Source: an uncultured virus (IMG/VR IMGVR_UViG_3300037502_002629)
Lineage: Duplodnaviria > Heunggongvirae > Uroviricota > Caudoviricetes
Virus record (IMG/VR): IMGVR_UViG_3300037502_002629
Strand: one strand, 5' to 3'
Length of the DNA: 64,000 nt
Under the pieces are notes generated by a model, which was not told the origin of the DNA, made no database searches, and was given only the letters and a program-made list of their open reading frames with translations. Every line of letters begins with the position of its first letter. Within the stretch, counting starts at the first letter, position 1. Made by a program: the position numbers and the translations under genes. Shown one piece after another: positions 15,301 through 52,797 of the stretch.

Positions 15301-17766
15301 GAAACAAAAAGGTCTATTAAAAGAGCATTTGACCGAGGAGTTGAATTTGTAGTGGGAGATATGCCAGGAGTAGATAGTCAGTTCATAGACTACTTACAAG
15401 AAATAGGTGCTAAGTTTACTATTTATCATACTGGTTCTACACCGCGAATTCAAGTAAAACAACCTACTACTCAACCATCTACACAACCCACTGAAGTTAA
15501 ACCAGGAGTAGAAATATCATCTAATTCTAAAGGATTAGGAGGTGCACTTACTAATCCCACAGAACTTGCTAAGTCTAAAGGGAACATTAAAAATTCTTAT
15601 CCTATATATTATCAATGGCTCAATAAAGATGGTGAAGCACAAGATCAAAACTTTAAGGATGTAGAAGAAGCATATCAGACATTAAAAGATTCTTCAGAAA
15701 GTAAAACAAAACCTTCTATAGAAAATAGCAATAATTACAAGTTAATGGTTGATTTGCTAAGAACCAAATTACAACAATATCCCGAACTTTCAGATCTAAT
15801 AACTAAACAAGGTGGTTCAGCCTGGATACTTTCTTCGACACACCAACCTACTAGTAATAACACTGTTTGGGAAACTGGCGGAAAGAATTGGTTTATTAAA
15901 GCTTTAAATGATGCTTATACATCAGTTAAAGCAGCTGCTCCTGCTACTGAAACTGTTACAGAAGATAATGGCTACAAATACTATGGTGCTTATTACACTG
16001 TAGTATTGAAAGATGGTGTAGGCGTAGATGTTAAAGGGTATAAAGGAAAAGCTGCAGCCAAGCAAAAATTATTGGATAACTACAATAGTAATCCTAATGT
16101 AGATCCTCAAAATGGAACATATTTTAGGAATCAACCACCAAATGCTGGCGCTATCATTCCATTAGCACCAGCAGAAACACAACCTAAAAAACCTGGTTCT
16201 TATACTTATACATTTCAAAATGGATTTAAGGTAACAACACCATTTGAACTTAATGATGAACAACGTAATGCATTAGCTGGATTAGAAGCTTTCCATAAAG
16301 GAACTAATAAAGTTGTAACAATATCAGGTGCAGCAGGTACAGGAAAAAGTACTATAATGAGCATATTTGATAAGTATTTGAGAAATGAGTATGAAAACGT
16401 ACTATATACCTCGCCAACTCACCGAGCCAACGCTGTTACTAAAATGATGAACCCTAATGCTAAAGTGTATACTTTGCATACATTATTTGGGTTGTCACCA
16501 GATGTTTCACTAGAAGATGGCAATTTTGATGTTAAAGATCTTCAGTTTGCTGAAGTAAATAAACCTAAGATCGGTAGTGGTGATATACTAGTGATTGATG
16601 AATCATCGATGGTTAATGATGCTTTGTATGAATTCATAAATATTGGTATTCAGCAGTTTAATATAAAGGTAATTTATGTCGGGGATGTTGCTCAGCTAAA
16701 GCCTGTCAAACAAAATACAAAGTCAAAAGTATTTGAGGAGGGTCAACAGACAGTTCATAAGCTTGTAAAAGTTGAACGCACAGGTGATAATGCTGTTCTA
16801 GAGGAGTCAGTTCGTATAAGAAACGGTCTAGATTGGAGTTACAGAACTAAACTTAATGACAAAGGTGAAGGTGTTGTTTATCTAACAACTACAAAAGATA
16901 CTATGAAAGTAGTAGCTAGTAAGTTTAGTATACAAAATAATTTAGATAATAAATTGTTTTTCAGAGTTTTATCAGCAACTAACAAAGGTGTTGACAATGT
17001 CAATCAAGCTGTTAGAGAGGTGTTATATCCTAATGATTTCAGTAAGCAAATACTGGAAGGCGAGATTATTATGGGTTATTCCAACTTTGATCGAGACTAT
17101 CGTACAGGACAATATAAGTTATACAATGGCGGAGATTATCAAGTAACAGCTGTTAAGCCAACCACTAAAAAAGTACCAGACCTTAATCTGACATTTGATG
17201 GATATGAGATTACTATCATTAATCTATTAGATAAAAGCATTCAACCTTATACATTGTTTGTTCTTGACAAAAGCGAAAAAATTGAGAAGGTTCAAGAGTA
17301 TGCTGATTATATCCAAGACCTGCAAATAAGAGCGGGTCAAAATATGAAAATGGGCAATAAAAAAGAAGCAGCTGCACTTTATGATAAAGCAAATAAACTA
17401 AAAGCAGAAATAGCAACCATGGTTGACTATACAAAATGGGATCCAAAGAAGCAAAGATATATCACAATTCTTGCTAAGACGTTTGATTATGGATATGCTC
17501 ATACTATTCATAAAGCACAGGGTGGAACATATGATAATGTTCTTATCTTAGCCGATACAGTTGGTTCATTTCCAGATGAAGTAGCGCAACAGGAACTTAA
17601 GTATGTTGCTGTTAGTAGAGCTAAAAGTGTAGCATACATCAGAACATCAAATCCTGAAGCTACTACGCAGGATAATTTGAACATAGATCAACTACAGATG
17701 CAGAGAGAAGCAGAAGAAATTATCAAACAAAAGTCAAACGAATCTAAATCTTGCAATCAAGGATAA
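3382..17766 (+). CDS. Virion-packaged RNA polymerase polyprotein (crAss-like), with zincin motif, accessory modules and C-terminal SF1B (Dda/RecD-like) helicase
   Basis: TRIPT at ~11056 followed by SGSDFDIDSLY (DFDID at 11176-11190) is the double-psi-barrel RNAP catalytic signature. HEAFH lies at 6391-6405 with a downstream EE. Helicase motifs GAAGTGKS (16327-16350), DESSM, GDVAQLKPV, YAHTIHKAQG and YVAVSRAK are present. Confidence 0.9.
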   Translation: MSCYIPVADLTDSLKAAYKHDFAKYRDLSAVIESVMSLDLEPEAKIHAIWFYAGYVNSAALKESRLQTEEWKRGVYQNIHNYLEPYITGKDTFDYEELSKKIIEFFPDKTIEPEELTLEDQIRNAINELAVIPDESVDIEAAKTLKLITDNRAIIDEVVLDPQNTLVRSYLLQLRNVLAARLVQPITTIVKVDNAIKDNDSYYSQAVDYINMREQPGIGIHNGRPMYVLRRKDGQVYEVYYDDTVQNKYRYYSPGTILHDSVVMLQPGDQVFQFYDKKNDAKVSPKDSRVIRIQPEELVTGLSLGQRTNVDDEDRVSVHQRIADTTPSDKGFYAVIKINANKNMQALHQKRRMRILSNFPNIRRTIETSERPNQVQHLETRSEPILSIARTTDDFTVTVTNHDNTLSFDLEVFSNYALVYPDNSVEMIDVERPDHLEILRNQVEIKKGDGYQKLNDDDIKQFVDAVRRYNEFKAEVLAQMEAVGSDNIDIRGIFYKYYDLTNSLTKVELSDKNINDQPLSEHIDSMNGRLPVKIQKYDDKGNKIGEPEIIKLPIVLRKTRDVWMVENTLPENAKLVDENGKEYNSIDIYSNSVLKDAEGNPLSLTEYVKSTPFHTARQALYVAFEVNPRNPTALKPIFKPLVYQQEATSNEDLINLFVTMVQAFNNASMVEGNTTVADWNNKFWGFNVNKQGIKPDVVLMSVSGQKKKFGIKYVMISDPTKNTPEQVEAFNKYFGAKERILPIYPELVDNINKIVSDLFESANMSLPATASLQEAALMARQLSKIVGDKNPAVSRLRSALNDLTNSIKNSNENLLQTYHSDIANGKVPEVMNETSEKYAIFDGNVLKLYSRGLKQNPLASYYTLKTTDEKKLTLTYRNPLKPVIIPGLVKPRPSIQMGPVAVPVSGEIINDPGTLAEPPAVPGGIIPLSNDPFKLVQALESFITLSPEEFDKEIETIKRLLPTAFKFTTEGFEGLDVDGDALGYLRGLFIHLNNTLRGKGVAFHEAFHGVFRNILSLNDQKYYLKRAERVLGDYKSDDKGKYITVNDKKVYANEFRQQRRYLHLNDEQIKYLIYEEYMADAFADFMDSGKAPQTWLEKLFAYLRMFINFFKKNKEIENLFYDISLGKFRTATVTERPSNVDTVYSIKDYKGLPSIVSNPYNQDQIARNYQVVESAIVQEVADRLVAEMAALKVTHPSLKEADLFDIARVNVLKEYQLSSLIEQAPTRAADITNAYSKHYDTAQWLLGEFHLSQRGFKFLNYTSKSEYDGLVVDRGSYPDILAESQKTHESFKKSVIKDYKNVVVDEVDVDQELLNATENEEKSEEELGENFRETSFISAAPGEGSAEFRKMFKYVTYEYIDPRFGIRRKRTVNSRAIFNTIRKITTNLDKLDVVPRILEEINHLNDIIDDYNINIRTEIGADYVIPKSYSDLLTLRDSLQAVYDTLTKAVGLEEGYPSKNLHVFIQFVNTFSTIDAKLMQVQLATTLETPEDKTKPEVVEQTYKLSDIVIGTDLNNIRQDIKGSIYRFNLSPEKAKEQLDVLSELGSIFDDVAKMQDLFIANGKLNDAELKKYINRIYIAIAKLNLDIPYTVVDTLFAYQVYRKFNEIYFDTYGTTLKADDFFAPSSSYRVILRNNKDYFNQFSNLEYKFWSNTIKSAIDARLAVPAGSGTTEQLEKQLSRLSEGYIKSAGEFILKYDPNLAASVTRNANGDMVVKYVKPTPAYVALMKLQRNADISTGLQEFIEDYFPGFQGYFADNPMFDLSKEENRLFLENLSVSAFGGFSQTIKIDNKTPVKNDPTTFNGIDDKTYALAMFGMFVNRTQRLVPNQKEKLITYKRIVTQYEATSTSIVIDAKYKRYVDAAGNPTKQNDRVAFVDDLLSVVKQEYNLIKKNFQEERTNSAPKIYKDYNDSTGARRGFTFNILRDFFVVGDTSVQENAVDNKSQRIGLRSNLIEEASKNTSWEELLANNPDLLSLLEQQLNLFGREQLQIFRDKLTQLGITEQDYPISDLYLNASRNMVADMFFNNWINGMQVNQLFDGAIAVGIKNFADFFKRQKAGAAAGENIYNPFRSSLGRTKTYRAAVMQEIIFYIDDNDLTKPAKLTPYNGPGEKNKAVKIFDGQSVNTIERRIKIAESQGQVDYDALEILKKMRYMLDSSPEYSKDIIALRNRNIYFNSLKTVAAAGFQYIKQSEHTLLRRDVSVIRTDINKNVAQQRLKNLYENADIYAEFLDLGITTMLEDPKTGEMRPVEDLYKETMSEIHSYFVPMKGREALHVILNSMEMDRIEQLMDPNASKKATVKPVSVDYQSIESGEGYLDLQSALENVPTDLTYIQVETGGITTKVTQGIQQKLLIMAQLNPNDPQYAAIKKDIQGYRDNLSAAVKSEVTRIQRMLDTNNTDVIGKIYTAIADGLREQGADPTILQWFELNPDGTPKYSPANPLITNTIVYYYFSLFNNGIFNKKIAGDKFYHVSPYGYKILETSRGDIITHREYKKNPDLYKNVNARYPSLRREEYDETDPVTGITEKKVRYIAEAIIPAKLKELDQTFVERYLSEFFSTRIPTEDKRSMIVVKVVDYIDEAYGNSIIVPFQLHMLSGSDFDIDSLYAHMKSSYKAPDGTRDGTRVLYGNYAHYKSKYKMTENDAKFIEYLIYMSKDDMVKPFLSEEIRKIDEQSSYKAEQARIFGDTFGGQIKDFFYENAALLEKEETEDNAELIDDFKKLIATFNVLQIFKESNLPTSPASLQSYIRTTGTNPVVNVILNDIVQNKINILSNPKVFDRFLQATNNRADAATEIYEDLVRRRGMTETEIYTKQNLYTPTALIVARSINAESKDSLGIAASFNKGVSMLNTIMATLKKPVGTVYINDGKTKINTDKIVDDAVQLVGGAIGLFADAPKNPYPGPLHLTDTTTPVMLGMFSLGFPHAGAIMFQSIPVIKQVLDRYIQQYGSSYRTTSGFAISKKNFLSGIIADAIEQNTKYLEENGILDYHPTTGEPIINKDSYKLIWNGVDTIKPDTEDQLATGLIPLENFGFSITDKNGASFPGDVENLLILNEFLNYMEYANYVSFSITKLTDTLKALRPDQDVFDRLLNTFKELKENPNDSKYLSGTSIANLWKAYPVLNAAYDALKYMDAMSKKVLIERTSFMKGLSALFANVRGLDADLIKKNLKAFIMLQLQNEMMQADPKGILPQLYLEQLDAEKFLDGTTISDYYYLRGKYPNNAFLQAVNAVTDNNGKRVLELTAKGNNATLFTDFLALLTDDIDVKARAFRIAYHGMIKSGAQRAKGSYYHLIPAALSKPMSDAMFALQDQLVSLDEYMLANHKLVKNEAGFYEMTPLAKQEYADRLNEILSKKFGNRKMDEIITDAVSKIVAYNIINSAEGVKRNTTSLWRVNKQLGNANLESAAIEELVSLIKQVAPGYSDNIITDQGNRKELGLPVAFDNVGLDQVDLFVPTGNTLELKIPGLDRRSKEILKTMGIYSWGDDYAFPLYRYNVYGQMMVLKKIDNKSLGEAFVETLAETAFSGSSNKINLIGRSAVYEVVQKQGTGKISPLAFDNRQGAILNNIVKGLQQTSSVRADAIPNWLNINRLQNKAYYFWPLANTQKGPVITNKTYSAIDNSTVTIGQVDGKYQFYNGKLYMTNKAGASATAQTPEQTALFAQALGAPSLEDLQNNPVFTDFFKGSAYIYLYNLNNGDINSPTAQPPAAPITPQTPVSTTQPSTQSAKRKTYSGKVTSLQPNQIFVFGSNEGSSKGGKPTHGAGSAKLAKDKFGAIQGQSRGIQGQSYAIVTKKFYDVEKSSTPGEIIKEIQGLYDYANKNTNKEFLVSDYSESNLNGYTGQEMADMFVKAGPIPSNIVFNDNFDKLITTQPSTQPTGVKGFQGYKGGFEDKGKGTPQGDGKDKAMRQVADGAIVEFKTDKVDSSSFTTLNYFDGTYSYEKDRYIGEAFTGDSFMGYRNKVIMLARNGKFAGISLNDETKRSIKRAFDRGVEFVVGDMPGVDSQFIDYLQEIGAKFTIYHTGSTPRIQVKQPTTQPSTQPTEVKPGVEISSNSKGLGGALTNPTELAKSKGNIKNSYPIYYQWLNKDGEAQDQNFKDVEEAYQTLKDSSESKTKPSIENSNNYKLMVDLLRTKLQQYPELSDLITKQGGSAWILSSTHQPTSNNTVWETGGKNWFIKALNDAYTSVKAAAPATETVTEDNGYKYYGAYYTVVLKDGVGVDVKGYKGKAAAKQKLLDNYNSNPNVDPQNGTYFRNQPPNAGAIIPLAPAETQPKKPGSYTYTFQNGFKVTTPFELNDEQRNALAGLEAFHKGTNKVVTISGAAGTGKSTIMSIFDKYLRNEYENVLYTSPTHRANAVTKMMNPNAKVYTLHTLFGLSPDVSLEDGNFDVKDLQFAEVNKPKIGSGDILVIDESSMVNDALYEFINIGIQQFNIKVIYVGDVAQLKPVKQNTKSKVFEEGQQTVHKLVKVERTGDNAVLEESVRIRNGLDWSYRTKLNDKGEGVVYLTTTKDTMKVVASKFSIQNNLDNKLFFRVLSATNKGVDNVNQAVREVLYPNDFSKQILEGEIIMGYSNFDRDYRTGQYKLYNGGDYQVTAVKPTTKKVPDLNLTFDGYEITIINLLDKSIQPYTLFVLDKSEKIEKVQEYADYIQDLQIRAGQNMKMGNKKEAAALYDKANKLKAEIATMVDYTKWDPKKQRYITILAKTFDYGYAHTIHKAQGGTYDNVLILADTVGSFPDEVAQQELKYVAVSRAKSVAYIRTSNPEATTQDNLNIDQLQMQREAEEIIKQKSNESKSCNQG
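14524..15486 (+). repeat. Three ~21-bp direct repeats ACTACYCAACCATCTACWCAA (TTQPSTQ) at 14524-14544, 14974-14994 and 15466-15486
   Basis: Read directly from the sequence. Each copy sits at a boundary between distinct globular modules of the RNAP ORF. Confidence 0.9.
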
Positions 17767-17767
17767 A

Positions 17768-20700
17768 ATGGCGTGTAGTATCATAAGAGATCCCAGAGAT
17801 GGGGAAGTTGTTCAGATTCTTGCTCCAAATGGACAACCATCTATGTTATTTAGTAATGCTTATCAAGTTACAGGTAACTCTGAAAAAGCACTTAGAATCT
17901 GGGCTGCGGCTTATACTCCCAGGTTTAAAATGAAATATGGAGACTGGGAAAATGGTGAAACATTTTTAACATTAGATATGAACGGTGAACCCACCGTTGA
18001 TACTGTAATGTACACCAACAGGCAGATCAATGACATTCTCAAAACATATTTTGCAAACTGGACAAACTTTCAACCTGGTAATAGAGGATTTGTAAAAGAA
18101 TCAGAGGCGCGTAGGTTTTTAGCAGCACTGAAAAAGAAGTTTCCTGATATTAAAGCTGAATTACAATATAGCTCAGGTGAGCCTGGCTATGCTAAAGTAG
18201 TTTTTATACCTGATGAAAAACAAATACCTTTCACAACTAATCGTAAAGAAATACGTCAACAGAAAGAAGTGGTTAATCCACTTATGGATAAACTGATGAG
18301 TAAGTTTCCAGGTCTAACTTATGAATGGATAAAGCCTGGTGAATTAAATCAGAGTGATCACTATGAAAAAGTTGATGGTATTCGTGCTTTTGTTCGCAAT
18401 AACAAAATTTATTTAGTAGAAGGTCGCGTACTACCAGAGGATGGTATAGAAGAAGTAATGCACGTTTTTGTTGAAATGCTCAGACAATCTAGACCTACTT
18501 TATTTAAAGGTCTGTTAGATGCAGCATCCAAAGACCCCAAGTATCAAGCGACATTTATTGCTATTTACAATCATTATAGTGATAAGATTCGTAACAAAGA
18601 ACGTGCTGAGATAATTATTCAAAGTGAGTTTCTGGGAAAATCGCTGGCAGCTGCCATGAGAAATGAGTTAGAAACTAATCCAGATGGAAGACCTGCTACT
18701 ACATTTGGTAAGTTAATACAGCGGTTTTTAGATTGGCTGGCTAATCTCTTAGATATTGGTGCTATGTCAGGCAGAGAAACTCTCAATGAAATAGTAGCGT
18801 ATATTAACACCGAAGATGTAGCTATTCCATTACCAGAAGACAACTACACTTATTATAGTGCAGCACCTACATCAGACCCAGATAATCTTTACGATCCTGA
18901 TGACAGAGATGATGCAGAAGAGTATAATAAAAAGAAAAAAAGACCAACACAACGCGAAAAACTTATTGAGCGTGGTAAGTTAGAACTTGAAAAACTCAGG
19001 TTGGTTCGAGAGTTTGTAACTCGTAATGCATTAAGTACTGCTGGCGCTGAGGCAGAGGAAGCAAAAAGACTTAGCATAGTTGATTTGCTGATTGCCAATG
19101 TCCAACAAAAGATACAAGATCTTGAAGATGGTGCAGAGACAATAAGTGTAAGTAAGTATGGTGGTTCTGAAAAAACAGAGATTGCTCGTACTAAAACAGC
19201 TGACATAGGTGCATCATTTGGTGAATTCTATCATATGTTCTTAGAAGAGTTGCAGTTTGAATATATGAAATCCAATAGATCACCAAGTACTGTATTTAGT
19301 GATCCAAGCTGGTTTGATGAGTTTTATGAAAAACACAAAGATCTTATCAAGTTTGACAAGTTTGACAAACAAGTTGTTCGACAAATTGCAGGTCAGCTTG
19401 CTGCTAAATTAGATGCACTTACAAGTGAAGGAAAAATAATTTTACCTGAAATTGAGATTGCAGTAAAGGATCAATCTGGTAAAATAGTTATTGGTCGTCT
19501 TGATATTTTGACTGTTGATAAACGTGGTAAAACTAGTGTAATAGATTTAAAAACAAAGAAAGTAAATTATATCCCTGGTAAGCCTAATTACTATAATGAA
19601 AGGGTATTTACTATGGAACCTAGTTCACGACAGGATACTTTGTTCAAAGATGGTGTTGATCCTGTATTTGCTCAATTTCGTTTACGGAATCCACTTAAAA
19701 AATATCATATACAGCTTGCTATATATGGTGAAATGATAAGTGCGCTGGGTATTAATCCTAATGATATTCAAGATCGTAAAATATGGGCAGTGGCTTATAA
19801 TGTGCAGCAAATACCAAATACAGAAATTTATAATCTAGAAGGTTACGGAATTGGTGAGTTTAATAATGCTGATTGGAAATCGATTGATCCTAATGGAGTT
19901 ATAGACGCAGCTGCACAATCACGTTTTCGACCAGCAGAAGAAAGACAAGATACAGATACCACTGCGGAGGAAATTAAAAAGAATCCATTTGCTCAAGTAG
20001 ACAAAGATTCTTTAACTCAAATGGTAGAGCGTATTCTCAAATTAGCACAAAACACACTCTCAGCCTTAGAAAAAGAAAAAAATGCTATTAAAAACAATGA
20101 AAACATATCTGTAGAGGATGCTAATAAACTAGTTGGCGAGATTAACAAACGAGTCGCAAGTATACTCAGCATAAAAGAAAAAATAGAGCAGGAAGGATTA
20201 GACAATCCTACAGATGAGTCTATTAGATTAAGCAAGGCTGCTATCATTAAGATGGCAATTGATGTGTTTTCTTATGAAATTGAAAACATCAGCAACAAGG
20301 TAGATGAAGTAGATATACCATCGACATATTCTTTGAATAATGTTCAAAACCAGAATATGTTAAAAACACTACAAGAATACAACTCTACTTTGGAGAATAT
20401 TGCAAGTTACATCAGAGACTTCAAGAATACGATTACAAGTATGGAGAACCTTCCTAAAGATACAAAGGAAGCTATCCAGGAGTATTTTGATGAAATGCTG
20501 CGTAAGTCCAGTAATGCTAGTGCAGTATATGTAAATGTTGGTAAGAAAATTGTCAAAACTGTTATTCTTAACACAATAGGCCCTGCTAATCTTAACACAA
20601 CAGGTCCTGCTAAGTTTGAAAAAGTGTTTGGAGAAATGCGCGCCATGCTTGGTCCAAAACTAGCAGCTATTGAAAAAACCATTGCTGATATTGAGTCTAA

Positions 20701-23700
20701 TAGAGCTACTGCTTCATCTGTTACCAGCAACTTTTCAAATGTAATTAAGAATATTTTTAGACAAAGCAAGAAAACTAATCTCGAAGCTTTAAAAGAAGAA
20801 GCAGCTAAGATTAGAAAGATAATGCAGATTAATAAACTTGATGAAAATACGCTTGATGATTACCTTGAAGGTATTTTTGGCAATCAAGATTCAGTGTGGT
20901 ATATGGGATCTACCATATCAGGTAGTAATAGTATGATAGTTAACATGGATCAGCTTATTGGTCAAAATGCTAACTCCGAAGCTGTTATATCTGCTGTTTG
21001 GCAATACCTGCGTAATGTTACAGAGTCAGCTAGGATAGAGGCTGTCAACTGGATGCAAGAAACTGATGTAAATAAAGCCACAGACGAAATCATTAAAGCA
21101 CATGGTGGGGACTTGTATAAAGCAAATGAATCATTTACTGAAGTAGTCGATGTCAATACACAATATGACAAAGACGGTAATGTAACTGAAACCAAACAGT
21201 TTTTACAGGCATTAGATCCTGCAAATATTGAATTTTACAATACTTATAATAGGTATAAAGCCCAGCTAAAACTGCTTAAAAACTTAATCATCACTACATC
21301 GCAAGCCAAGAAAACTGCACCTGAAAGTGAACAAGATACCATACAAGCTGAGATTGATAGACTCCGCGATTTAGAAAATGCTTTGGGTCTAGAGTTTATC
21401 GAGTGGCAGATAGAAGAAACAAATACAGAATTTAAACCTGAAGTATTGCGTTTATTTAGAGCAAGTGGAACAGCCAATACTGAAATATCTGACCTATATA
21501 GACAAATACAAGCTATTGAAAACAGTGCTCATGGGGTCCAAAACTTAACAGAAGAACAACAAGAAGCTATTGATAGTCTAGAAGCTCAGATATCAAAAAT
21601 ACGCGAGCGACTTAAACAAGAAGATCCAGCACTACAGGAAAAGTTGGATAAGATGTTGGAATACTTTGAGTATGATTTGAACTATAGTCTATGGGTTAAG
21701 AAGAAAGCTGAAATTGAAGCAAGAGGAAATCCTTTGGAGCTAGAACGTTGGCATCGCAACAATAGTGTCATGGCTCCTACACAAGAGTGGCAGGAACAGA
21801 TTGAGCGTATTTACGAGCAAATAGCAGCTGTGCGGGAAGAAGATCCAGTGATGCAAGATCTTATTAAAAAACGCAACAGCATTAAAAACCGCAACAAGGT
21901 GAGGGGTAAGTTTAATCTTCTATATATGAGTGAACAAGATGTGGAAGAGTTTGTGAAGTTAGATGAGCAGATACGCGAGCGAGGAATGATGGCAGCTGAA
22001 ACTACTGACATGATTACCAAGCAATATCTCGCTGAGCGATTTAATCTTTTAGCCAGTATGCGCAAAGAAGTACTGAGTGATAGTTATACTAAGAAAAGAG
22101 ATGCACTAAAAAGCGCAGTTGAACTTTCCTATAAGACATACAAGCAATTATCAGAACAGCACGATAAGGAGGCAAGTCCTTCATTAGCATTGCGTCAACG
22201 TATGGTTGAGGCATATAACCAGTATCAACGTGACGAAAACATATTTGCTGAGTTTTTTAATAAATACAATTACACAAAGTATGAAGTAGGAAACGATGTT
22301 ATTGCTTTACGTAAAGATATAAACGAACAACCCAAGCGTTTTGTATATGTGTCTATGCCTGCTGATCCTAATGATATAGAGCAGATTCCTAATAATAAAT
22401 ACAAAATCAAACGTCTGAAACAAGAAGCTTATAATCCAGATTATCAGCAATCTTTTGTACCTCAACGAGAAGGCGCAGGTTTTTATCCTTATCCCAAGGC
22501 TATACGATTTAACAAAGACACTAGTGAGTTTGAAATCAATCCAAGAGCTAGTCAGCGATATGTTAGCAGTAAGTTTAAACAAATGCAGGCTGATCCTGTA
22601 AAACACAAATTTTATACTGAGTGGTTTATCAAAAACTTTGTTCTCAAACAAAAATCAGCCAGTGGCCGCCCTCTTGGATTTTTTGCACCTTACGTACAAC
22701 AACGCGGCTTAGAAAACATAATAAGCAAAGGAGTTGAAGGCGTAGGTAGAGAAATTAAAGAGAAGATGCAGGAACTTCAATATGCTAATAGCAAAATGGA
22801 AGAAGCCACTAACCAGTCTGGAGTTACAGGTAAACAAAAAATATACTTTCCTGAAAACCAGCGTGTCACTGCAGATCTTACTTCTACTGACATGATTGGC
22901 TCTATAGTGAATTGGAATACAGGATATTACTTAAATAAAAACTTAGCTGTATCAGCACTAGAAGTGGAAGGTATACTGGCATATCTGAATGATATCAGAG
23001 CACGTCTATCTGCTGATTCCAGAGATTTAACAGGTACTAGAGACGCTGACCGAGTTGCTGCAGCTCGAAAAATAGACGTCATCATTAAAGAGATCGAGTA
23101 TAGTCATATGAAGTTCAATTATGGACAAATGTATGAGAAAGGCGCATCTCAACATCCATTGCTTAACAGAAAGACATTGCGTGTTATTATGCAGTTGGCA
23201 GCTTTTGGGCGTATGGCTTTTGATATACCAATGCAGTTTGGTAACTTACTCTCTGGTAATGTGCAAGCATTTTTATCTACACAAGAAGCAAGATTTGCTA
23301 CACCACAGGATTACATAGAAGCAAAGAAAGTTTTATACAGTAAGTTTTTTCCAAAGTTACTTGCAGACTATGGTAAACAAAGCGGTTTATCATTAGAAAC
23401 TTTGATTTATTACTACATGAATCCCTCACTTAAAGACCTGAGCAATTTTGCAGATATGAATACTGTAAAAAAAATGCGCAGGTTAGCAAATAAAGTGTGG
23501 GCTTTTCAAGATATCAGTATGGCTCTGCAGGATAAAGGCGAGGTTGAAATAGGCATGACAACTATGCTTATGATAATGATCAACAGAAAATTCGAGCAGT
23601 TTGAAATTAATCCTGATGGTAGTGTTGTAATAGAAAATGGTGTTAAGAAAGTAAAGCGCGATAGCGAAGGTAATGTAGTCTATGTCAATGCTACTGAAGT

Positions 23701-24592
23701 ATTTAAGCAAGTTAATGGAGCTATTCAGTTACGCAATGATGTAAACGTTACTGAACAGGAAATGCAACATTTGAAAGGTACTATTATGACTGAAATCTAT
23801 CGGTTTCAGGGAAACTATGCTAAAGCTACAAAGTCAAGCTTTAGCGGTACAATGATAGGTACTCTTTATAACTTTTATAGAAATTATCTCATACCAGCAG
23901 TATCTAACCGCTTTAGCATGGGCGGCTACGAAGGTGTAGGTAGCGCATATAGTTGGGATGCACCAGAAGCATACACTGGATACTATGTAGCTTTAATGAA
24001 GATGTTCAAGTATTATGGTTTAGGTAAAGCTGGAAAGGCGTTGTTATATGATACGTTCCTACCAGGCTTCGCTAAAAAACAGATTAAGTTTGACTCAGAT
24101 GAGGGGATGGACTATTATCGATATCGTGCAGTTATGGCCTCCAGAGAAGTATTAGTAGGTCTTTTATTTTACATGCTATATCAAGCCCTTCGTAATATGA
24201 TTATGGACGATGATTCTGAAGAACTAACTTTTGTTGAACTATCCTTGGCAAGGTCGTTGGTAAAAGTATCAAATGAGTCACGTTCTATGATTCCTTTGCC
24301 AATCATTGGTAAACCAGGCGATTATATTGATAATTTTGCTCAGCTAACCAGTGCACTTAAAGAAGGTAAAACTCTATGGAATCTCTCAGAAGATGCATTC
24401 TGGTCAATAATGTATACTACAACTGGATCAGAACATGCGTATGAGCGCGCGTTTTACCAGCGTGATACTGATAGATGGCAAGAAGGCGATCCTAGATTAT
24501 ATAAAAGTGTAGCGGATTTGTTGGCGTGGTCTAATATAGTAGATGCAGTACAGCCGCGTGAAGCAGCTGAAAGAGCAGTAAAAATGAAATAA
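17768..24592 (+). CDS. Giant putative cargo protein with degenerate zincin-like motif and PD-(D/E)XK nuclease domain
   Basis: N-terminal LAPNGQPSML...LDMNGEP motif. EEVMH at 18449-18463 sits in a zincin-like context. PEIEI...GRLDIL...IDLKTK...YHIQLAIY (~19440-19730) matches the RecB/PD-(D/E)XK layout. Long coiled-coil middle region. Confidence 0.75.
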   Translation: MACSIIRDPRDGEVVQILAPNGQPSMLFSNAYQVTGNSEKALRIWAAAYTPRFKMKYGDWENGETFLTLDMNGEPTVDTVMYTNRQINDILKTYFANWTNFQPGNRGFVKESEARRFLAALKKKFPDIKAELQYSSGEPGYAKVVFIPDEKQIPFTTNRKEIRQQKEVVNPLMDKLMSKFPGLTYEWIKPGELNQSDHYEKVDGIRAFVRNNKIYLVEGRVLPEDGIEEVMHVFVEMLRQSRPTLFKGLLDAASKDPKYQATFIAIYNHYSDKIRNKERAEIIIQSEFLGKSLAAAMRNELETNPDGRPATTFGKLIQRFLDWLANLLDIGAMSGRETLNEIVAYINTEDVAIPLPEDNYTYYSAAPTSDPDNLYDPDDRDDAEEYNKKKKRPTQREKLIERGKLELEKLRLVREFVTRNALSTAGAEAEEAKRLSIVDLLIANVQQKIQDLEDGAETISVSKYGGSEKTEIARTKTADIGASFGEFYHMFLEELQFEYMKSNRSPSTVFSDPSWFDEFYEKHKDLIKFDKFDKQVVRQIAGQLAAKLDALTSEGKIILPEIEIAVKDQSGKIVIGRLDILTVDKRGKTSVIDLKTKKVNYIPGKPNYYNERVFTMEPSSRQDTLFKDGVDPVFAQFRLRNPLKKYHIQLAIYGEMISALGINPNDIQDRKIWAVAYNVQQIPNTEIYNLEGYGIGEFNNADWKSIDPNGVIDAAAQSRFRPAEERQDTDTTAEEIKKNPFAQVDKDSLTQMVERILKLAQNTLSALEKEKNAIKNNENISVEDANKLVGEINKRVASILSIKEKIEQEGLDNPTDESIRLSKAAIIKMAIDVFSYEIENISNKVDEVDIPSTYSLNNVQNQNMLKTLQEYNSTLENIASYIRDFKNTITSMENLPKDTKEAIQEYFDEMLRKSSNASAVYVNVGKKIVKTVILNTIGPANLNTTGPAKFEKVFGEMRAMLGPKLAAIEKTIADIESNRATASSVTSNFSNVIKNIFRQSKKTNLEALKEEAAKIRKIMQINKLDENTLDDYLEGIFGNQDSVWYMGSTISGSNSMIVNMDQLIGQNANSEAVISAVWQYLRNVTESARIEAVNWMQETDVNKATDEIIKAHGGDLYKANESFTEVVDVNTQYDKDGNVTETKQFLQALDPANIEFYNTYNRYKAQLKLLKNLIITTSQAKKTAPESEQDTIQAEIDRLRDLENALGLEFIEWQIEETNTEFKPEVLRLFRASGTANTEISDLYRQIQAIENSAHGVQNLTEEQQEAIDSLEAQISKIRERLKQEDPALQEKLDKMLEYFEYDLNYSLWVKKKAEIEARGNPLELERWHRNNSVMAPTQEWQEQIERIYEQIAAVREEDPVMQDLIKKRNSIKNRNKVRGKFNLLYMSEQDVEEFVKLDEQIRERGMMAAETTDMITKQYLAERFNLLASMRKEVLSDSYTKKRDALKSAVELSYKTYKQLSEQHDKEASPSLALRQRMVEAYNQYQRDENIFAEFFNKYNYTKYEVGNDVIALRKDINEQPKRFVYVSMPADPNDIEQIPNNKYKIKRLKQEAYNPDYQQSFVPQREGAGFYPYPKAIRFNKDTSEFEINPRASQRYVSSKFKQMQADPVKHKFYTEWFIKNFVLKQKSASGRPLGFFAPYVQQRGLENIISKGVEGVGREIKEKMQELQYANSKMEEATNQSGVTGKQKIYFPENQRVTADLTSTDMIGSIVNWNTGYYLNKNLAVSALEVEGILAYLNDIRARLSADSRDLTGTRDADRVAAARKIDVIIKEIEYSHMKFNYGQMYEKGASQHPLLNRKTLRVIMQLAAFGRMAFDIPMQFGNLLSGNVQAFLSTQEARFATPQDYIEAKKVLYSKFFPKLLADYGKQSGLSLETLIYYYMNPSLKDLSNFADMNTVKKMRRLANKVWAFQDISMALQDKGEVEIGMTTMLMIMINRKFEQFEINPDGSVVIENGVKKVKRDSEGNVVYVNATEVFKQVNGAIQLRNDVNVTEQEMQHLKGTIMTEIYRFQGNYAKATKSSFSGTMIGTLYNFYRNYLIPAVSNRFSMGGYEGVGSAYSWDAPEAYTGYYVALMKMFKYYGLGKAGKALLYDTFLPGFAKKQIKFDSDEGMDYYRYRAVMASREVLVGLLFYMLYQALRNMIMDDDSEELTFVELSLARSLVKVSNESRSMIPLPIIGKPGDYIDNFAQLTSALKEGKTLWNLSEDAFWSIMYTTTGSEHAYERAFYQRDTDRWQEGDPRLYKSVADLLAWSNIVDAVQPREAAERAVKMK

Positions 24593-24609
24593 CCTATAAA
24601 TTCAAAATC

Positions 24610-24732
24610 ATGGAAACAATCAAAGACATTATCGCTAAAGTCAATGCTACCATTGACACTTACTTCCCTACTGTACCTAACTGGTGCATTTGGACCATCG
24701 GAGCATTAGTAATTTACTTGATTTTGAAGTAA
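24610..24732 (+). CDS. Small membrane protein (40 aa, not in ORF track)
   Basis: METIKDIIAKVNATIDTYFPTVPNWCIWTIGALVIYLILK has a hydrophobic C-terminus and fills the intergenic gap. Confidence 0.6.
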   Translation: METIKDIIAKVNATIDTYFPTVPNWCIWTIGALVIYLILK

Positions 24733-24751
24733 TTTATTAGTATATTAGATT

Positions 24752-24892
24752 ATGGCTAAACCTAAAATGACTGCTGGGGCGGTATTCCATGCTCGTCCTA
24801 AAGTAAAAAGAGCAGGAGTACACGCTAAAACCAAACATAGCGGTTTAAAATCCAGCAAATTATACAAGAAGAAGTATAGAGGCCAAGGCTAA
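24752..24892 (+). CDS. Small basic protein ending KKYRGQG (46 aa, not in ORF track)
   Basis: MAKPKMTAGAVFHARPKVKRAGVHAKTKHSGLKSSKLYKKKYRGQG. Its stop overlaps the next ATG (TAATG). Confidence 0.75.
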   Translation: MAKPKMTAGAVFHARPKVKRAGVHAKTKHSGLKSSKLYKKKYRGQG

Positions 24893-25785
24893 TGACAAAT
24901 CAAGAAAAACGTCAGCTCTGGGAGGTATTGTACAAGTGCACCAGGAATGGATATCCTGGTGCCACTTATCAGCAATATGATTCCCCTAAGGATCCTAGAA
25001 TCCGCGGGGGTAGATATCCATGGACATATCACCAGCTACGGGATTTATATGAGATGCTTGTAGTGTACGGTGATGCGAATGAACCAATAGCAGCCTGGCG
25101 CGAGCTGGAAAAATACAAGAATAAAATTGCACCTGCTTGTCTGCGTACAATTTACCAAACTATGGTGTTTACTCCCCCTGTGCCATCTGGGCTAAGGTTG
25201 GTATTTCCAGACATATCTGACGCACCAGTAGGAAATCCAACAGATGTAAATGACTGGAATACACTTTTTGATTTGCCAAACAATGGAACGCCGTTTACAT
25301 CAGTTTATGTTTTAGGAACAACAACTTTAATATTAGTAGGGAGCACTAATATTACCTTTACTGCTGCAGATTTTAGCGGATATCAAGTAGAAATTATAGA
25401 TGATGAGGTAGGTTGTATTAGGGATACAACAATTAAATGTATGAATTGTCCAGCTTTGCAATCTATTAGTTTCCCGCGTGCAGTTGGAGTAGGTAAAAAT
25501 GCATATGAATCTTCAACACTACAAACAGCTAATTTACCTTTAGTTCAAGCAATTGGAACTCAGGCTTTTGCTGATTTAGCAGCATTAGAAACATTGTACA
25601 TACCAGTATGCACTAATCTTGGTGGAAGTGTATTAGATGATCTTGTTTTTCTCGGTACAGTTGGTGATTCAAATTTAGTGGTTACAATTGATTCATCCAG
25701 AGCAACTTGCAATGCAGGTGGTCCAGATGGAGACCTCGGATATTTAATAGGAAATATTCCTACCGCAACAATTACATACGTATAG
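24892..25785 (+). CDS. Hypothetical protein with C-terminal BspA/LRR_5-like repeats
   Basis: LQSISFPRAVGVGKNAY / LQTANLPLVQAIGTQAF / LETLYIPVCTNLG repeats. Confidence 0.55.
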   Translation: MTNQEKRQLWEVLYKCTRNGYPGATYQQYDSPKDPRIRGGRYPWTYHQLRDLYEMLVVYGDANEPIAAWRELEKYKNKIAPACLRTIYQTMVFTPPVPSGLRLVFPDISDAPVGNPTDVNDWNTLFDLPNNGTPFTSVYVLGTTTLILVGSTNITFTAADFSGYQVEIIDDEVGCIRDTTIKCMNCPALQSISFPRAVGVGKNAYESSTLQTANLPLVQAIGTQAFADLAALETLYIPVCTNLGGSVLDDLVFLGTVGDSNLVVTIDSSRATCNAGGPDGDLGYLIGNIPTATITYV

Positions 25786-25787
25786 AT

Positions 25788-26315
25788 ATGGCAAAACCTG
25801 GACTTTACGCAAACAAAGCTTGTTATAAATGTAAACTAGAAAAACCAATTGAACTTTATTATAAAGGTTCTAATACTAAAGATGGTTTGCATTCTTGGTG
25901 TAAAGATTGTTGCAATATTGGTAATAAAAAATCTATTATAAAAAAGTATTCTACATTTGAAGGTAGAATACCTACTTTTCTTTATACATGTAAAACAAGT
26001 GCTATTAAAAGAAAACAAGAATTTAGTTTAACAGCTGATGATTTAAGAGCCATGTGGAAAGAACAAGATGGTGTATGTTGTTATTCAGGCATACCTATGA
26101 AATTAGAACCAAATACTTTATTTTCAGTTTCTGTTGAACGTATAGATAATAATATAGGGTATCTTGCTGGTAATACTGTTTTAGTATGTAAAGGTATTAA
26201 TAGTATGAAATCTTCAATGACAGGTGAAGAATTTTATCAATTTTGTTCATCTGTCACTAATTGGTTATCAGATAGTAAAGGAAATCTAAATGTAACATTT
26301 CAAAAATATGACTAA
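25788..26315 (+). CDS. Free-standing HNH-family endonuclease (DRID-type) starting with captured MAKPGLYAN
   Basis: The likely start is ATG 25788, right after the upstream stop. It has CxxC zinc motifs, CCYSG and SVERIDNNIGY..GN.VLVC...NSMK. Confidence 0.85.
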   Translation: MAKPGLYANKACYKCKLEKPIELYYKGSNTKDGLHSWCKDCCNIGNKKSIIKKYSTFEGRIPTFLYTCKTSAIKRKQEFSLTADDLRAMWKEQDGVCCYSGIPMKLEPNTLFSVSVERIDNNIGYLAGNTVLVCKGINSMKSSMTGEEFYQFCSSVTNWLSDSKGNLNVTFQKYD

Positions 26316-26463
26316 ACAATCAAAAGGATTGTATGCTGCAATCCACGCTAAACGTAAGCGCATAGCTTCTGGCAGTGGAGAAAAAATGAGGAAACCTGGG
26401 GCTAAGGGTGCACCCTCTAAACAAGACTTTATCAAATCAGCTAAAACAGCTAAGAAGAAATAA
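26308..26463 (+). CDS. Small basic protein GLYAAIHAKRKRIASGSGEKMRKPG (51 aa, not in ORF track)
   Basis: MTKQSKGLYAAIHAKRKRIASGSGEKMRKPGAKGAPSKQDFIKSAKTAKKK. The start overlaps the HNH 3' end. Confidence 0.85.
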   Translation: MTKQSKGLYAAIHAKRKRIASGSGEKMRKPGAKGAPSKQDFIKSAKTAKKK

Positions 26464-26465
26464 CT

Positions 26466-26963
26466 ATGGCAAAGTCACCAGCCTGGCAAACTTGTATTTC
26501 CTGCAATAAAGAAGGAGATAAATCTTTATTTGCTAAAGGTGGAAAAGGAATGTGCAATAGATGTTATAAAATAAACTGGGAAGAAAAAAATCCTGATAAA
26601 GTAAGAGCTCAAAGACTTTGGGGAAATGCTTATAAAAGAGCTAAATCATTAGGTTGGCCTGAACCTGATTTTGATACAGAATGGATATACAATAAAATAA
26701 TAGAAGGTTATTGTGAAGCTACAGGAATAATGTTTGATTTAACAAGTGTTACTAGGCTTTCAAACCATGCTAAAAATCCCTGGGTTCCATCTATAGATAG
26801 AATAGATAGTTCTAAACCATATTTAAAAAATAATGTCCAAATTGTGGTGTATATGTATAATGTTTGTAAAGCTGAATTTAGCCACCAAGATGTAATAACT
26901 TTCTGTAAAGCTGTAAAATTAAAAGAAGATGGCAAAATACAAAAGTCCAAGTTGGCAGCGTAA
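26466..26963 (+). CDS. Free-standing HNH-family endonuclease (DRID-type) starting with captured MAKSPAWQ
   Basis: CxxC pairs, YCEATG and PSIDRIDSSKPYLKNNVQIV...NVCK. Confidence 0.85.
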   Translation: MAKSPAWQTCISCNKEGDKSLFAKGGKGMCNRCYKINWEEKNPDKVRAQRLWGNAYKRAKSLGWPEPDFDTEWIYNKIIEGYCEATGIMFDLTSVTRLSNHAKNPWVPSIDRIDSSKPYLKNNVQIVVYMYNVCKAEFSHQDVITFCKAVKLKEDGKIQKSKLAA

Positions 26964-27216
26964 AGAAGGTAAATCTAAATCAGGTGGACTCAATAAGAAG
27001 GGTGTAGCTTCTTATAGACGAGCTAACCCTGGGTCTAAGCTTCAGACTGCTGTGACCACTAAACCCAGTAAGCTTAAACCTGGTAGTAAAGACGCTAAAC
27101 GTCGCAAGTCATTCTGTTCCAGGATGAAAGGGATGAAAGCTAAACTTACATCAGCTAAGACTGCCAATGATCCCAACAGCAGGATCAATAAGTCACTTAA
27201 AAAATGGAATTGTTAA
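26929..27216 (+). CDS. Small basic phage protein (SPSWQRKEGK...GGLN...RRKSFCSRM...KKWNC)
   Basis: ORF track. Lys/Arg-rich with a recognisable phage motif. The start lies inside the HNH 3' end. Confidence 0.85.
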   Translation: MAKYKSPSWQRKEGKSKSGGLNKKGVASYRRANPGSKLQTAVTTKPSKLKPGSKDAKRRKSFCSRMKGMKAKLTSAKTANDPNSRINKSLKKWNC

Positions 27217-27237
27217 AAATAATTAACTTTACATAAA

Positions 27238-28497
27238 ATGCAATACAGTCTTGACCAAGCAAGGTTATGGTTTAGAGATGCCTTACCTGCAACACGTCCT
27301 AACGGGTTTATTGTTAGTCGTGATATTATGATTCTTGACAATGGAGAATCGTACATTTTTACTACAGCATGGGAGAAGGTGACACTGCCTATCAAGGGTG
27401 AGAAAGGAGATAAAGGCGACACTGGTCCACAGGGTCCTCCAGGTTCAAGCACAGGTGGTGGTGCTAACATAGGTTTTGTAAGGTGGGTTACTACTGATGC
27501 TGAACTTCAGTCTGCGTGGGCGGGAGTGGTAAGTGGCACTGTAAGAAGTATTCATCTTGCTGCTGACATTACATTAAGTAAGACTCTTGAGTTACCTGCT
27601 AATTACAATAAAATTCTTGAGATAGAAGGACATGGCTCACGCCTGTTTATCCCTTCAGGAATGACAGGTATCAGGCGTTCTTATAACAGTCTGAGCGAGG
27701 CTAAGGCAGGTATTGACTGTCAGTTAAGGATTACTAACCTAAGCTTTGAAAGTTCAGGTCGTACAGCTACTGCGATTGATATGCAGGCTAACTACGGATC
27801 ACGCATTGAGGGTTGCAGGTTCTACAACTTTGCAACTGCATACAAGGGTGGATGGACGATGGGAACTATCATTGATCAGTGCTACTTCTGGGAGAATAAC
27901 ATATCTATTGATTTGGACTATGCGAGGTTCACAGGTGGATCAAACAGTGAATCTCAGTGCAACCATTCGATTGTAAGGGACTGTAAGTTCAGACACAGCG
28001 CAGGTCAGTTTGCAGCAATCAAAGCAACTGCTGTTAGTGGTTTACATGTGTGGCATAATATTTTTGAAGGAGTAGAAGCGGGCCCAGATTACGAAGTTTT
28101 CTTTGATGATAACAGCAGTAATGTGGTGAAGGAAGTGTTGATCTACGGTAACCACGTCGAGCAGAAACCACGTATTGCAGCGTTTCATGTGCGGTTGAAG
28201 GACGGGTATGCTTACGTTGGCGGTATCTATTCTCAGTACGATTGTACATTGATTTCGTTTGATTCTTCAGCGTATGCAAAGATGTTTGTCGAAGCCATTC
28301 CGTTCCTAACATCGGGTACTACGTTTAATCACGTTAATAACGCTGGACGCTGGTATTGGATAAATCCACCTGCAACATTTGACCCTGCTACACCTTCTCG
28401 TTGGGTTAATGGAAACGTACCTATTAACATGGGAGTTGAAAGCTGGAATACAAATGGACAGACGCCATTTATCAGATTAGCAGGAAGAACCTTATAA
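27238..28497 (+). CDS. Putative spike/fibre protein: short collagen-like repeat plus parallel beta-helix
   Basis: GEKGDKGDTGPQGPPG followed by pectin-lyase-like strands (IEGCRFYN, IDQCYFWEN, VRDCKFRH). Confidence 0.7.
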   Translation: MQYSLDQARLWFRDALPATRPNGFIVSRDIMILDNGESYIFTTAWEKVTLPIKGEKGDKGDTGPQGPPGSSTGGGANIGFVRWVTTDAELQSAWAGVVSGTVRSIHLAADITLSKTLELPANYNKILEIEGHGSRLFIPSGMTGIRRSYNSLSEAKAGIDCQLRITNLSFESSGRTATAIDMQANYGSRIEGCRFYNFATAYKGGWTMGTIIDQCYFWENNISIDLDYARFTGGSNSESQCNHSIVRDCKFRHSAGQFAAIKATAVSGLHVWHNIFEGVEAGPDYEVFFDDNSSNVVKEVLIYGNHVEQKPRIAAFHVRLKDGYAYVGGIYSQYDCTLISFDSSAYAKMFVEAIPFLTSGTTFNHVNNAGRWYWINPPATFDPATPSRWVNGNVPINMGVESWNTNGQTPFIRLAGRTL

Positions 28498-28499
28498 AT

Positions 28500-28691
28500 A
28501 TGACCAAGAAAAACTGGATTCAAGGTGCTATAAAAAAACCTGGAGCATTCACTAAGAAAGCAAAAGCTGCTGGTAAATCTGTGAGTGCCTATGCTACTTC
28601 TGTATTAAAAGAAGGTAGTAAAGCTAGTACTCGTACGAAGCGTCAAGCCGCGCTTGCAAAAACATTATCTAAAATGCGTAAAAAGAAATAA
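28500..28691 (+). CDS. Small basic protein (KNWIQGAIKKPGA...LAKTLSKM)
   Basis: ORF track. Lys-rich and tightly packed in the operon. Confidence 0.8.
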   Translation: MTKKNWIQGAIKKPGAFTKKAKAAGKSVSAYATSVLKEGSKASTRTKRQAALAKTLSKMRKKK

Positions 28692-28693
28692 TC

Positions 28694-28975
28694 ATGTCAA
28701 TGAATAAAGGAAAAGCAAAAGCCAAACCTGCTCGTAAATCAGGTAAAAGCAAGGGTAAAACCACAGCAGCTACTGCTGGTATCCCTAAACGCGCGGTGAT
28801 GAATCGTCGTAAATACAATGAAGCTATCTCTGGTGATACTATGAGTAACTACGCTATGTACAAACGCGGTGGTACTACTAAGGCTAAGAAGTTTGCAGCA
28901 CTAGCTCCACCATATGATAAAGTAACTTATGCAGATAAAATTGTAGGAGCTAAAAAGCGTGGCAAGAAAAAATAA
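28694..28975 (+). CDS. Small basic protein
   Basis: ORF track. Lys-rich, contains MYKRGG. Confidence 0.75.
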   Translation: MSMNKGKAKAKPARKSGKSKGKTTAATAGIPKRAVMNRRKYNEAISGDTMSNYAMYKRGGTTKAKKFAALAPPYDKVTYADKIVGAKKRGKKK

Positions 28976-29000
28976 TTCTAACCCTTAAAAACTAAAAACA

Positions 29001-52113: not shown

Positions 52114-52117
52114 TTTG

Positions 52118-52303
52118 TTATTTTTTAAATGGTTTATCTAATTCTTTCCTATATTCATCTATATCAGTGAAAACAGGAGGAACTTTCCCGCACATAGCAC
52201 ACCCCATCTCTCCATGAGAGACAGGGTATACTACTGGTGAATACTGTTCGTTTTTGCAATAAATGCATTTAGTTTGCATTATTACTTTTGCCGTTTCAGT
52301 CAT
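52118..52303 (-). CDS. Small zinc-ribbon protein
   Basis: CIYC...CAMC. Confidence 0.6.
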   Translation of the reverse strand: MTETAKVIMQTKCIYCKNEQYSPVVYPVSHGEMGCAMCGKVPPVFTDIDEYRKELDKPFKK

Positions 52304-52797
52304 TAGTTCGCCGCAATAATTGATTTTACTTTACTACGTTCTGATACACCAGAGGCATCATCAAATAGGGGCAGTATAACTTTCATTAATGCACCTACAG
52401 TATCAAAGCCATCTTTAATCAAACTCGCAGCAAGCAGGGTGTGACGTACTGATATTACATTACTCAGTTCCTGCTCTTTGAATTGATTACGAATTGTAGA
52501 AGATACTTTAACAATCGCCTTAGCTGTTTTAGTGTCAATACCAGTGCGAATTGTTAAGATGTTTTCTTCTGCTTGCTCAGAGGGATAGCTCAATTCCACA
52601 GGGAAGAAACGATCTAACAAAGCGCGGTCAATCTGAGTAGTACCACTATACTCCGCACCTAAGTTAGCAGTGGCAAAGAATACACATTTCTCATTGACGG
52701 GGATACTACGCAGTGCATCACCGCCTGCAATGTCTACAGGAAGATATCTACGTTTGTCAAGACATGGGAACAATATGTTTGCGGCTGAAATCGGGGC
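52303..52797 (-). CDS. MoxR/CobS-like AAA+ ATPase, exon 2
   Basis: APISAANILF...FATAN.G.EYSGT..IDRALLDRF. It joins in frame to exon 1 as DELNR|APIS. Confidence 0.88.
   Translation of the reverse strand, partial: APISAANILFPCLDKRRYLPVDIAGGDALRSIPVNEKCVFFATANLGAEYSGTTQIDRALLDRFFPVELSYPSEQAEENILTIRTGIDTKTAKAIVKVSSTIRNQFKEQELSNVISVRHTLLAASLIKDGFDTVGALMKVILPLFDDASGVSERSKVKSIIAAN

Follow-up and report, generated by a model that had tools for sequence, protein, structure and literature searches.

A free-standing HNH endonuclease gene that appears to have captured the start of its target gene in an uncultured phage

Results

Organization of the HNH1 locus

The DNA analysed here, called the window, is a 64,000-nucleotide (nt) stretch from an uncultured virus of the Caudoviricetes (IMG/VR record IMGVR_UViG_3300037502_002629). 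It is regarded as phage DNA because it contains a DNA polymerase gene (phrog_1252) and very large open reading frames (ORFs). The plus strand carries at 25788..26315 the gene of a nuclease of 175 amino acids (aa), HNH1, which begins MAKPGLYAN and continues with KACYKC. A complete copy of a small basic gene follows directly (26308..26463, +; 51 aa) and reads MTKQSKGLYAAIHAKRKRIASGSGEKMRKPG; its product belongs to phrog_16028 (3.9e-24), a family without an assigned function. This layout, including the start MTKQSKGLYAA of the second gene, agreed with the initial annotation, which had proposed that a homing element without intron or intein inserted into the 5′ end of the small gene, took over its translation start and repaired it with a divergent N-terminus. 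The two ORFs lie in different frames, and the small gene possesses both an ATG of its own and a full N-terminus. The TAA stop codon of HNH1 (26313-26315) and the ATG of the small gene fall within an 8-nt overlap of the sequence TATGACTAA; stop/start overlaps of -3 or -7 nt with the small gene are recurrent in the HNH1 family.

Both ORFs appear to be composite. The first 27 nt of HNH1 (25788..25814, +), referred to as the prefix, correspond to the native start codon and codons 2-9 of an N-type small gene, i.e. an allele with Asn at the fifth position of G-L-Y-x-N, and match nuclease-free alleles. The remainder (25815..26315, +) is the PacI-like core of the nuclease with a Cys4 zinc finger and a beta-beta-alpha-metal motif. 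In the small gene, the 5′ end encoding MTKQSKGLYAA (26308..26340, +) would be a replacement borne by the element, and the gene body (26341..26463, +) would be native to the recipient genome. The last codon of the replacement, GCA (Ala; 26338..26340, +), stands where nuclease-free alleles have AAY (Asn); it is the only position with a fixed difference and would mark both an immunity change and the edge of the element. Core and replacement together form a putative mobile unit of 526 nt (25815..26340, +).

Identity of the prefix

The prefix was compared with small-gene alleles that have no nuclease gene. Three such loci from IMG/VR (L107, L115 and L123) begin MAKPGLYANIHAKRKRI and are identical to the prefix in 9/9 aa and 22-23/27 nt, which is the expected result if a native start was taken over. 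Removal of 25815-26340 in silico yielded a 49-aa ORF that was identical without gaps to the alleles of these loci at 39-41 of 49 positions, so that joining MAKPGLYAN to the gene body gives a protein close to natural nuclease-free forms, as the initial annotation had proposed. The best phage match of HNH1, the nuclease of DSL-LC05 (50% identity), aligned with residues 10-169 only; it begins MKTCFCC, has no prefix and is directly followed by the small gene with an ATGA overlap. Judged from these alignments, the resemblance of the prefix to the small-gene start exceeds chance.

The small-gene family consists of basic proteins of 49-51 aa, and nuclease-free alleles are present in annotated marine phages. 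In pelagiphage HTVC168P the allele (gp30) begins MAKRGLYANIHAKR and has a DUF6321 gene directly behind it; that of cyanophage KBS-P-1A begins MPKQKPGLYANIHAKR, and similar alleles occur in two uncultured Mediterranean phages. Starts of the 51-aa class (MPKQKPGLYAN, MAKQKPGLYAN) were found in nuclease-free cyanophages, but with Asn. The replacement N-terminus is thus no special design, the same length class being found nuclease-free. No nuclease-free relative starting MTKQSKGLYA was found.

Extent of the mobile unit

The window was aligned with L168, a metagenome contig whose DNA is unrelated to it on both sides. The upstream flanks were identical at 92/210 positions (44%) and the downstream flanks at 67/134 (50%). 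Identical positions numbered 481/493 (98%) in the nuclease core (25815-26307) and 38/38 in the new gene start (26308-26345), against 23/27 in the prefix and 84/118 (71%) in the rest of the small gene (26346-26463). Since core and new start are common to both and the flanks and gene body are not, a unit of approximately 25815-26340 appears to have been recently shared, which is consistent with the proposed insertion within the 5′ end of a gene. The unit is flanked by codon 9 (AAC, Asn) and codon 10 (ATC, Ile) of the small gene in the recipient, and this insertion point is common to two different alleles in two different genomes.

Breakpoints were sampled in 16 further pairs of loci whose segments from the nuclease to the Ala codon were 93-100% identical. 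Over the 60 nt that precede this codon there were 0-5 mismatches, and none in eight pairs. Mismatches started 3-35 nt after the codon in 14 of the 16 pairs; in the other two (L044/L065 and L061/L223) its own third base already differed. A co-conversion gradient from a break at the Ala codon would look like this, and co-conversion of flanks that falls off with distance is a mark of homing endonucleases. A further such mark, presence or absence at one defined site, was seen in the comparison of the window with L168, in L253 and, weakly, in contig X10 (the latter two described below).

Linkage and allele classes

A locus search with the single HNH1 protein returned no loci; an alignment-based search succeeded. 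The relatives compared were DSL-LC05, 80 IMG/VR loci and 80 metagenome loci. Immediately behind the nuclease comes the small gene in the window, in all 81 loci of the first two sources and in 78/80 metagenome loci, i.e. in 159 of 161 relatives. The exceptions are L185, which has no DNA downstream, and L246, in which no small gene was detected.

Among 182 small-gene alleles, none of the 81 N-type alleles had a nuclease upstream (75 of them had at least 700 nt of upstream DNA to inspect); of the 101 non-N alleles, 95 did. Counted as unique DNA sequences, there were 78 nuclease-free N-type, 68 nuclease-linked and four nuclease-less non-N alleles, the rare nuclease-less alleles of the putatively resistant form being L098, L112, L130 and L161. 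When loci were collected with the small gene as seed, 76/80 were of the Asn type and a nuclease was present in 0/80.

The only fixed nucleotide differences between the classes (78 versus 68 unique sequences) were in one codon, AAY versus GCR. The replacement start therefore does differ from the targets, as had been claimed, and does so in one codon. The AAY to GCR difference is consistent with a carrier allele that lacks the recognition site, which would confer immunity. The initial annotation had placed the recoding in the G-L-Y-A codons. These read GGA CTT TAC GCA in the prefix and GGA TTG TAT GCT in the small-gene copy, and three of the four do differ in the window; across the family this recoding is not fixed. 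Synonymous recoding of G-L-Y-A as an adaptation was accordingly rejected as a fixed feature, codon preferences differing only partly between the allele classes. An inverted repeat at 26326-26344, GGATTG...CAATCC, extends over the G-L-Y-A-A-I codons in the replacement start and is not kept in the family consensus.

Occurrence of captured starts

A target-like prefix was present in 25 of 139 unique HNH1-family members, for instance MAKPGLYAN/K, MKGLYAN/T and MKKGLYAN/G (the slash denotes the junction with the nuclease); further captured prefixes were MAKGLYA/E, MAKKPGL/K and MKKGLYD/M. Prefixes extending beyond the Asn position were found in 0/139. In about half of the 81 loci from DSL-LC05 and IMG/VR, a DUF6321 gene ends just upstream, and the nuclease starts MKTCF with no prefix. 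A quick tree placed most prefix-bearers in one well-supported clade of 52 and two outside it.

Eight members (L025, L028, L035, L059, L190, L196, L216 and L246) have the sequence ..S-K-Y-A-N-x-T-K-R-A-[FW]-Y-[FY]-P.. ahead of the first Cys. This subgroup was counted as prefix-like; no natural small-gene allele with S-K-Y-A-N was found, and the sequence may be an old, eroded capture. In L050 and L053, where the nuclease prefix is MKKGLYD, the small-gene motif lies in one open frame with DUF6321-like sequence, and the two genes may be fused.

Polymorphism among close relatives

Close relatives were compared as contigs (X2, X3, X4 and X10). Contig X2-7 (599 nt) carries HNH1 and is nearly identical to the window; five of its seven differences lie within the 27-nt prefix, and the same five prefix changes occur in an X3 contig with HNH1. 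In the X10 contig, 25795 is linked to 26323 by a single letter, so that HNH1 is absent (25796-26322 is missing), although its left side of only 26 nt makes this weak. Its allele reads M-A-K-K followed by G-L-Y-A-A and is a nuclease-less, putatively resistant (Ala) form, read here as nuclease loss by recombination between the two gene-start copies or as conversion without acquisition. In L253 an uninterrupted N-type small gene is followed by a second nuclease gene, HNH2, and by DUF6321, in the same local gene order. A search for relatives via the upstream 297-aa gene returned only two distant loci and no close nuclease-free genome.

A second nuclease in tandem

HNH2 (26466..26963, +) begins MAKSPAWQTCISC and belongs to a related family; it is 27% identical to HNH1 over 97 aa. 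Its first eight codons (26466-26489, +; MAKSPAWQ) equal the native start of the DUF6321 gene, as indicated by the joint in an X3 contig and by the starts of homologues. The DUF6321 gene itself (26929..27216, +; PF19846 at 1.5e-19) has a replacement start that reads MAKYKSPSWQRKEG, and its 5′ end overlaps the 3′ end of HNH2 by 35 nt. X3 contig 14 (2501 nt) carries HNH1 and is about 93% identical to the window over 25300-26489. It joins 26489 to 26965 with six letters between them (side 252 nt), so that the eight prefix codons of HNH2 run straight into the DUF6321 gene; X4 has the same joint. This HNH2-less allele is the empty site of HNH2.

Among the listed homologues of HNH2, 80/120 start with MAK and 63/120 with MAK[ST]P, with junctions at varying points; DUF6321 domains open with the conserved motif S-[AP]-[AS]-W-Q-R-x-E-G-K. 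Of 56 loci examined, a set that left out the seven loci L307-L313, 55 have a DUF6321 gene whose start is between -28 and +5 nt from the stop of HNH2. HNH2 and DUF6321 are a second instance of the design seen in HNH1 and the small gene, and the two stand in tandem in the window. In L264-L304, many HNH2-linked DUF6321 genes seem to start (K)LAK.. with no ATG in reach, which points to TTG or CTG as the start codon within the replacement 5′ end.

The small gene and the DUF6321 gene match 172 phage records at 60-90% nucleotide identity (cyanophages, pelagiphages and others), a DNA-level conservation that is unusually high for two small genes of unrelated phages. Both domains are combined in one 141-aa protein in phrog_11180.

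Relationship of HNH1 to known nucleases

HNH1 matched the nuclease families phrog_1035 (1.6e-27) and phrog_3118 (1.4e-20). A profile built from 29 family members and compared with the PDB retrieved PacI (3ldy) at an E-value of 1.8e-5 and Cas9 HNH domains at 0.03. The PacI match covers the motif [ED]-R-x-D...G-Y...N...N-x-x-K as well as the N-terminal CxxC...CxxC. The family alignment has invariant Cys at positions 12, 15, 38, 41 and 42; invariant in the 29 sequences are N129, N138, K141 and the Cys4 zinc-site residues C12, C15, C38 and C41.

An AlphaFold (AF2) model of HNH1 reached a predicted local distance difference test score (pLDDT) of 89, with residues 1-6 below 50. Foldseek searches with the model gave a Cas9 HNH domain (7mpz, 8.7e-4), PacI (1.4e-3) and Gme HNH at low TM-scores (0.26-0.36), the top two matches being unrelated axonemal proteins. 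On the core similarity seen in profile and model, HNH1 is assigned to the PacI-like branch of the HNH (beta-beta-alpha-metal) superfamily. Pfam searches with HNH1, HNH2 and the small gene returned no useful family; DUF6321 was found only for the ORF at 26929-27216.

Surroundings of the locus

Just upstream of the locus, two giant ORFs of 4794 and 2274 aa stand back to back at 3382-17766 and 17768-24592. Very basic mini-ORFs are located at 24752-24892 (46 aa) and 28500-28691 (63 aa; matching phrog_20603), and tiny basic genes form a cluster in the region around HNH1 and HNH2. The HNH1 ORF contains a 9-bp stem at 25946-25971. Between 24500 and 28800, 12 promoter-like sites were found against 13.9 expected, an uninformative result, and six terminator-like hairpins against 2.7 expected. 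Farther away, at 50275-52812 on the minus strand, genes with CobT-like and porphyrin-biosynthesis-like PHROG matches (phrog_17276 and phrog_249) are possibly auxiliary metabolic genes.

Discussion

The results make it likely that HNH1 is a homing endonuclease gene of the HNH type, free-standing and lodged inside the 5′ end of a phrog_16028 gene, with neither intron nor intein. The recipient's start codon and first nine codons appear to form the start of the HNH1 ORF now, and the rest of the small gene appears to be read from an imported start. In the proposed mechanism, HNH1 would cut nuclease-free Asn-type alleles at or beside the junction of the codons AAY and ATY. The break would be repaired from a nuclease-carrying genome during co-infection, and the nuclease would thereby be copied along with a varying portion of the small gene. 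Because of the imported Ala codon (GCR instead of AAY), the carrier would be immune to its own enzyme. The prefix that is retained may serve both as start signal and as left homology arm; in the latter role it would make the element independent of whichever gene lies upstream. Translation of the small gene would probably depend on coupling or re-initiation where the stop and start codons overlap. That the prefix is hypervariable agrees with the view that this DNA belongs to the recipient and is renewed whenever the element invades. HNH1 would need no intron or intein because the element brings a spare start for its target gene, and the complete gene downstream of the nuclease agrees with the repair by a replacement start that the initial annotation had postulated.

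Several observations weigh against this interpretation. HNH1 did not match the Pfam HNH models at E-values up to 0.1, and the first His of the canonical H-N-H motif, the general base, is replaced by an invariant Arg118 within S-V-E-R-I-D. PacI carries D-R at the aligned position, and since the first His is Arg as in PacI, the family is described as a PacI-like variant rather than a canonical HNH nuclease. No N-type, uncut allele was seen in the backbone of the window phage itself in four runs, and the only close relative seen without HNH1, X10 with its 26-nt left side, has the Ala form. The association of Asn and Ala with the absence and presence of the nuclease could partly reflect plain linkage of an allele lineage with the nuclease instead of selection for immunity. 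For HNH2, a single fixed immunity substitution was not found among the examined loci. Prefixes are missing from 114 of the 139 unique family members, so start capture is not required for persistence of the family, and the quick, unfinished tree cannot separate repeated capture from one capture followed by erosion. We infer cleavage, the position of the cut, the immunity of GCR alleles, the translation starts and the absence of splicing from the DNA sequence.

The preponderance of prefix-less members is also an argument for regarding HNH1 as an ordinary intergenic free-standing homing nuclease that uses the DUF6321 and small genes as arms, with the prefix a functionless, accidental scar of one illegitimate recombination. 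In about half of the 81 loci, 12-17 nt separate the end of the DUF6321 gene from the nuclease's first Cys codon, and the prefix is disordered in the structural model. A single accident would, however, hardly account for a prefix-bearing element in the two unrelated contexts of the window and L168, for prefixes in several branches that never pass the Asn codon, for the MAK[ST]P starts of 63 of the 120 listed HNH2-family proteins, or for near-identical backbones that differ mainly in the prefix. We consider this explanation unlikely, although the prefix taken by itself may be such a functionless scar. The two copies of the small-gene 5′ end could also stem from a tandem duplication in which the nuclease entered the first copy, which then decayed to nine codons, and small basic genes are indeed often neighbours in these phages. 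Such a history is very improbable: nothing remains of the body of a first copy, the segment shared with L168 is bounded by the prefix/core junction and the Ala codon, and the prefix belongs to the Asn, 49-aa class whereas the downstream start belongs to the Ala, 51-aa class.

A domesticated, non-mobile HNH1 that is expressed together with the small basic proteins and helps, for instance, in packaging, as known from HK97-like phages, would be compatible with the location in a structural or late region and with the near-universal linkage to the small gene. It would not be expected to vary between presence and absence at exact boundaries, to occur as 98-100% identical copies in unrelated flanks with a breakpoint gradient, or to be missing from all 80 small-gene-seeded loci, 76 of which are N-type; the chance that HNH1 has such a role is accordingly rated as very small. 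Least credible is that HNH1 is encoded in a self-splicing intron or is an intein, removal of which from the RNA or the protein would make the small gene whole again. The position within a coding sequence is typical of these elements, but the HNH1 ORF terminates at a stop codon, and its downstream neighbour is in another frame with its own ATG and full N-terminus. An Rfam scan of 24500-29000 returned no match at E-values up to 1. This part of the initial proposal, an element without intron or intein, is thus likewise in line with what the sequence contains.

A start-capturing homing endonuclease has its closest known analogue in mobile endonuclease ORFs of fungal mitochondria that carry a replacement gene end, described for atp6 of Allomyces macrogynus and for atp6, atp9, cox2 and nad3 of Glomus in the parts of the source drawn on here (PMC3630166). 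There, too, a free-standing endonuclease ORF enters a protein gene without an intron, and the displaced native piece stays beside it (the same parts of PMC3630166). The fungal ORFs described there replace the 3′ (C-terminal) end of the gene, while the HNH1 element replaces the 5′ end. The native remnant in fungi is the downstream piece, reported in these parts as not transcribed in atp6 and cox2, whereas that of the HNH1 target is the nuclease's own start; the enzymes are of the LAGLIDADG or GIY-YIG type in mitochondria, as against HNH in phages (PMC3630166). In the HNH1 element the prefix is in phase with the nuclease, and the replacement start travels with it (38/38 in L168). With its 5′-end replacement and an HNH-type enzyme, HNH1 is best viewed as a functional analogue rather than a member of the fungal type, and by analogy as its mirror image at the 5′ end.

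Among phage elements, the seg and mob genes of T4 are free-standing and move by "intronless homing"; according to the sections of PMC2988022 used here, they are sited between genes and have cut sites hundreds to thousands of bp away. They resemble HNH1 in their inheritance together with flanking markers by co-conversion and in stop/start overlaps that suggest translational coupling. They differ in that the predicted break point of HNH1 is the insertion point, as for introns, and that the element lies within the target ORF and uses its start (compared with the same sections of PMC2988022). Like the homing endonucleases of introns and inteins, HNH1 would insert into conserved coding sequence and thereby split its recognition site, with the cut adjoining the insertion. 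It differs from them in having no ribozyme match and no in-frame fusion; the gene would be restored in DNA by a duplicated start and not by splicing.

In the T4-like phage Aeh1, an HNH nuclease gene likewise occupies a coding region without an intron: nrdA is reportedly split by mobE and left in two pieces that assemble as proteins. The target gene of HNH1, unlike nrdA of Aeh1, would remain in one piece, since a new 5′ end comes with the element. PacI (PDB 3ldy), a rare-cutting HNH restriction endonuclease of 142 aa, is the best solved relative of the HNH1 family profile and has in common with it the zinc site and the motif with Arg for His, although the sequence similarity to HNH1 is low. We know of no homing role for PacI. 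In the literature searched, which did not cover subscription journals, no report of the start-capture arrangement in a phage was found, and the parts of PMC10448857 and PMC7902536 drawn on here describe nothing equivalent in phages.

Start capture would represent a third route, besides introns and inteins, by which a homing endonuclease can reside inside an important coding sequence without destroying the gene. It also would explain nuclease ORFs that start with a few codons of a neighbouring gene, a signature that annotators can look for. The predicted target site is …TAY GCN AAY / ATY CAY GCN…, the slash denoting the junction, and the Asn or Ala codon offers a simple rule for calling alleles in metagenomes as sensitive or resistant. 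In aquatic phages, nucleases of this kind probably drive mosaicism, as well as the odd conservation of the two small genes at the nucleotide level. In a broader and tentative view, which we regard as conceivable but doubtful, start capture may be widespread among nuclease genes as a means by which homing endonucleases colonise coding sequences. The conservation of phrog_16028 and DUF6321 among unrelated phages of cyanobacteria, SAR11 and freshwater hosts might then result largely from nuclease-driven conversion and transfer, the small genes being shared landing pads spread by the nucleases and the prefix a portable left arm that is refreshed in each recipient.

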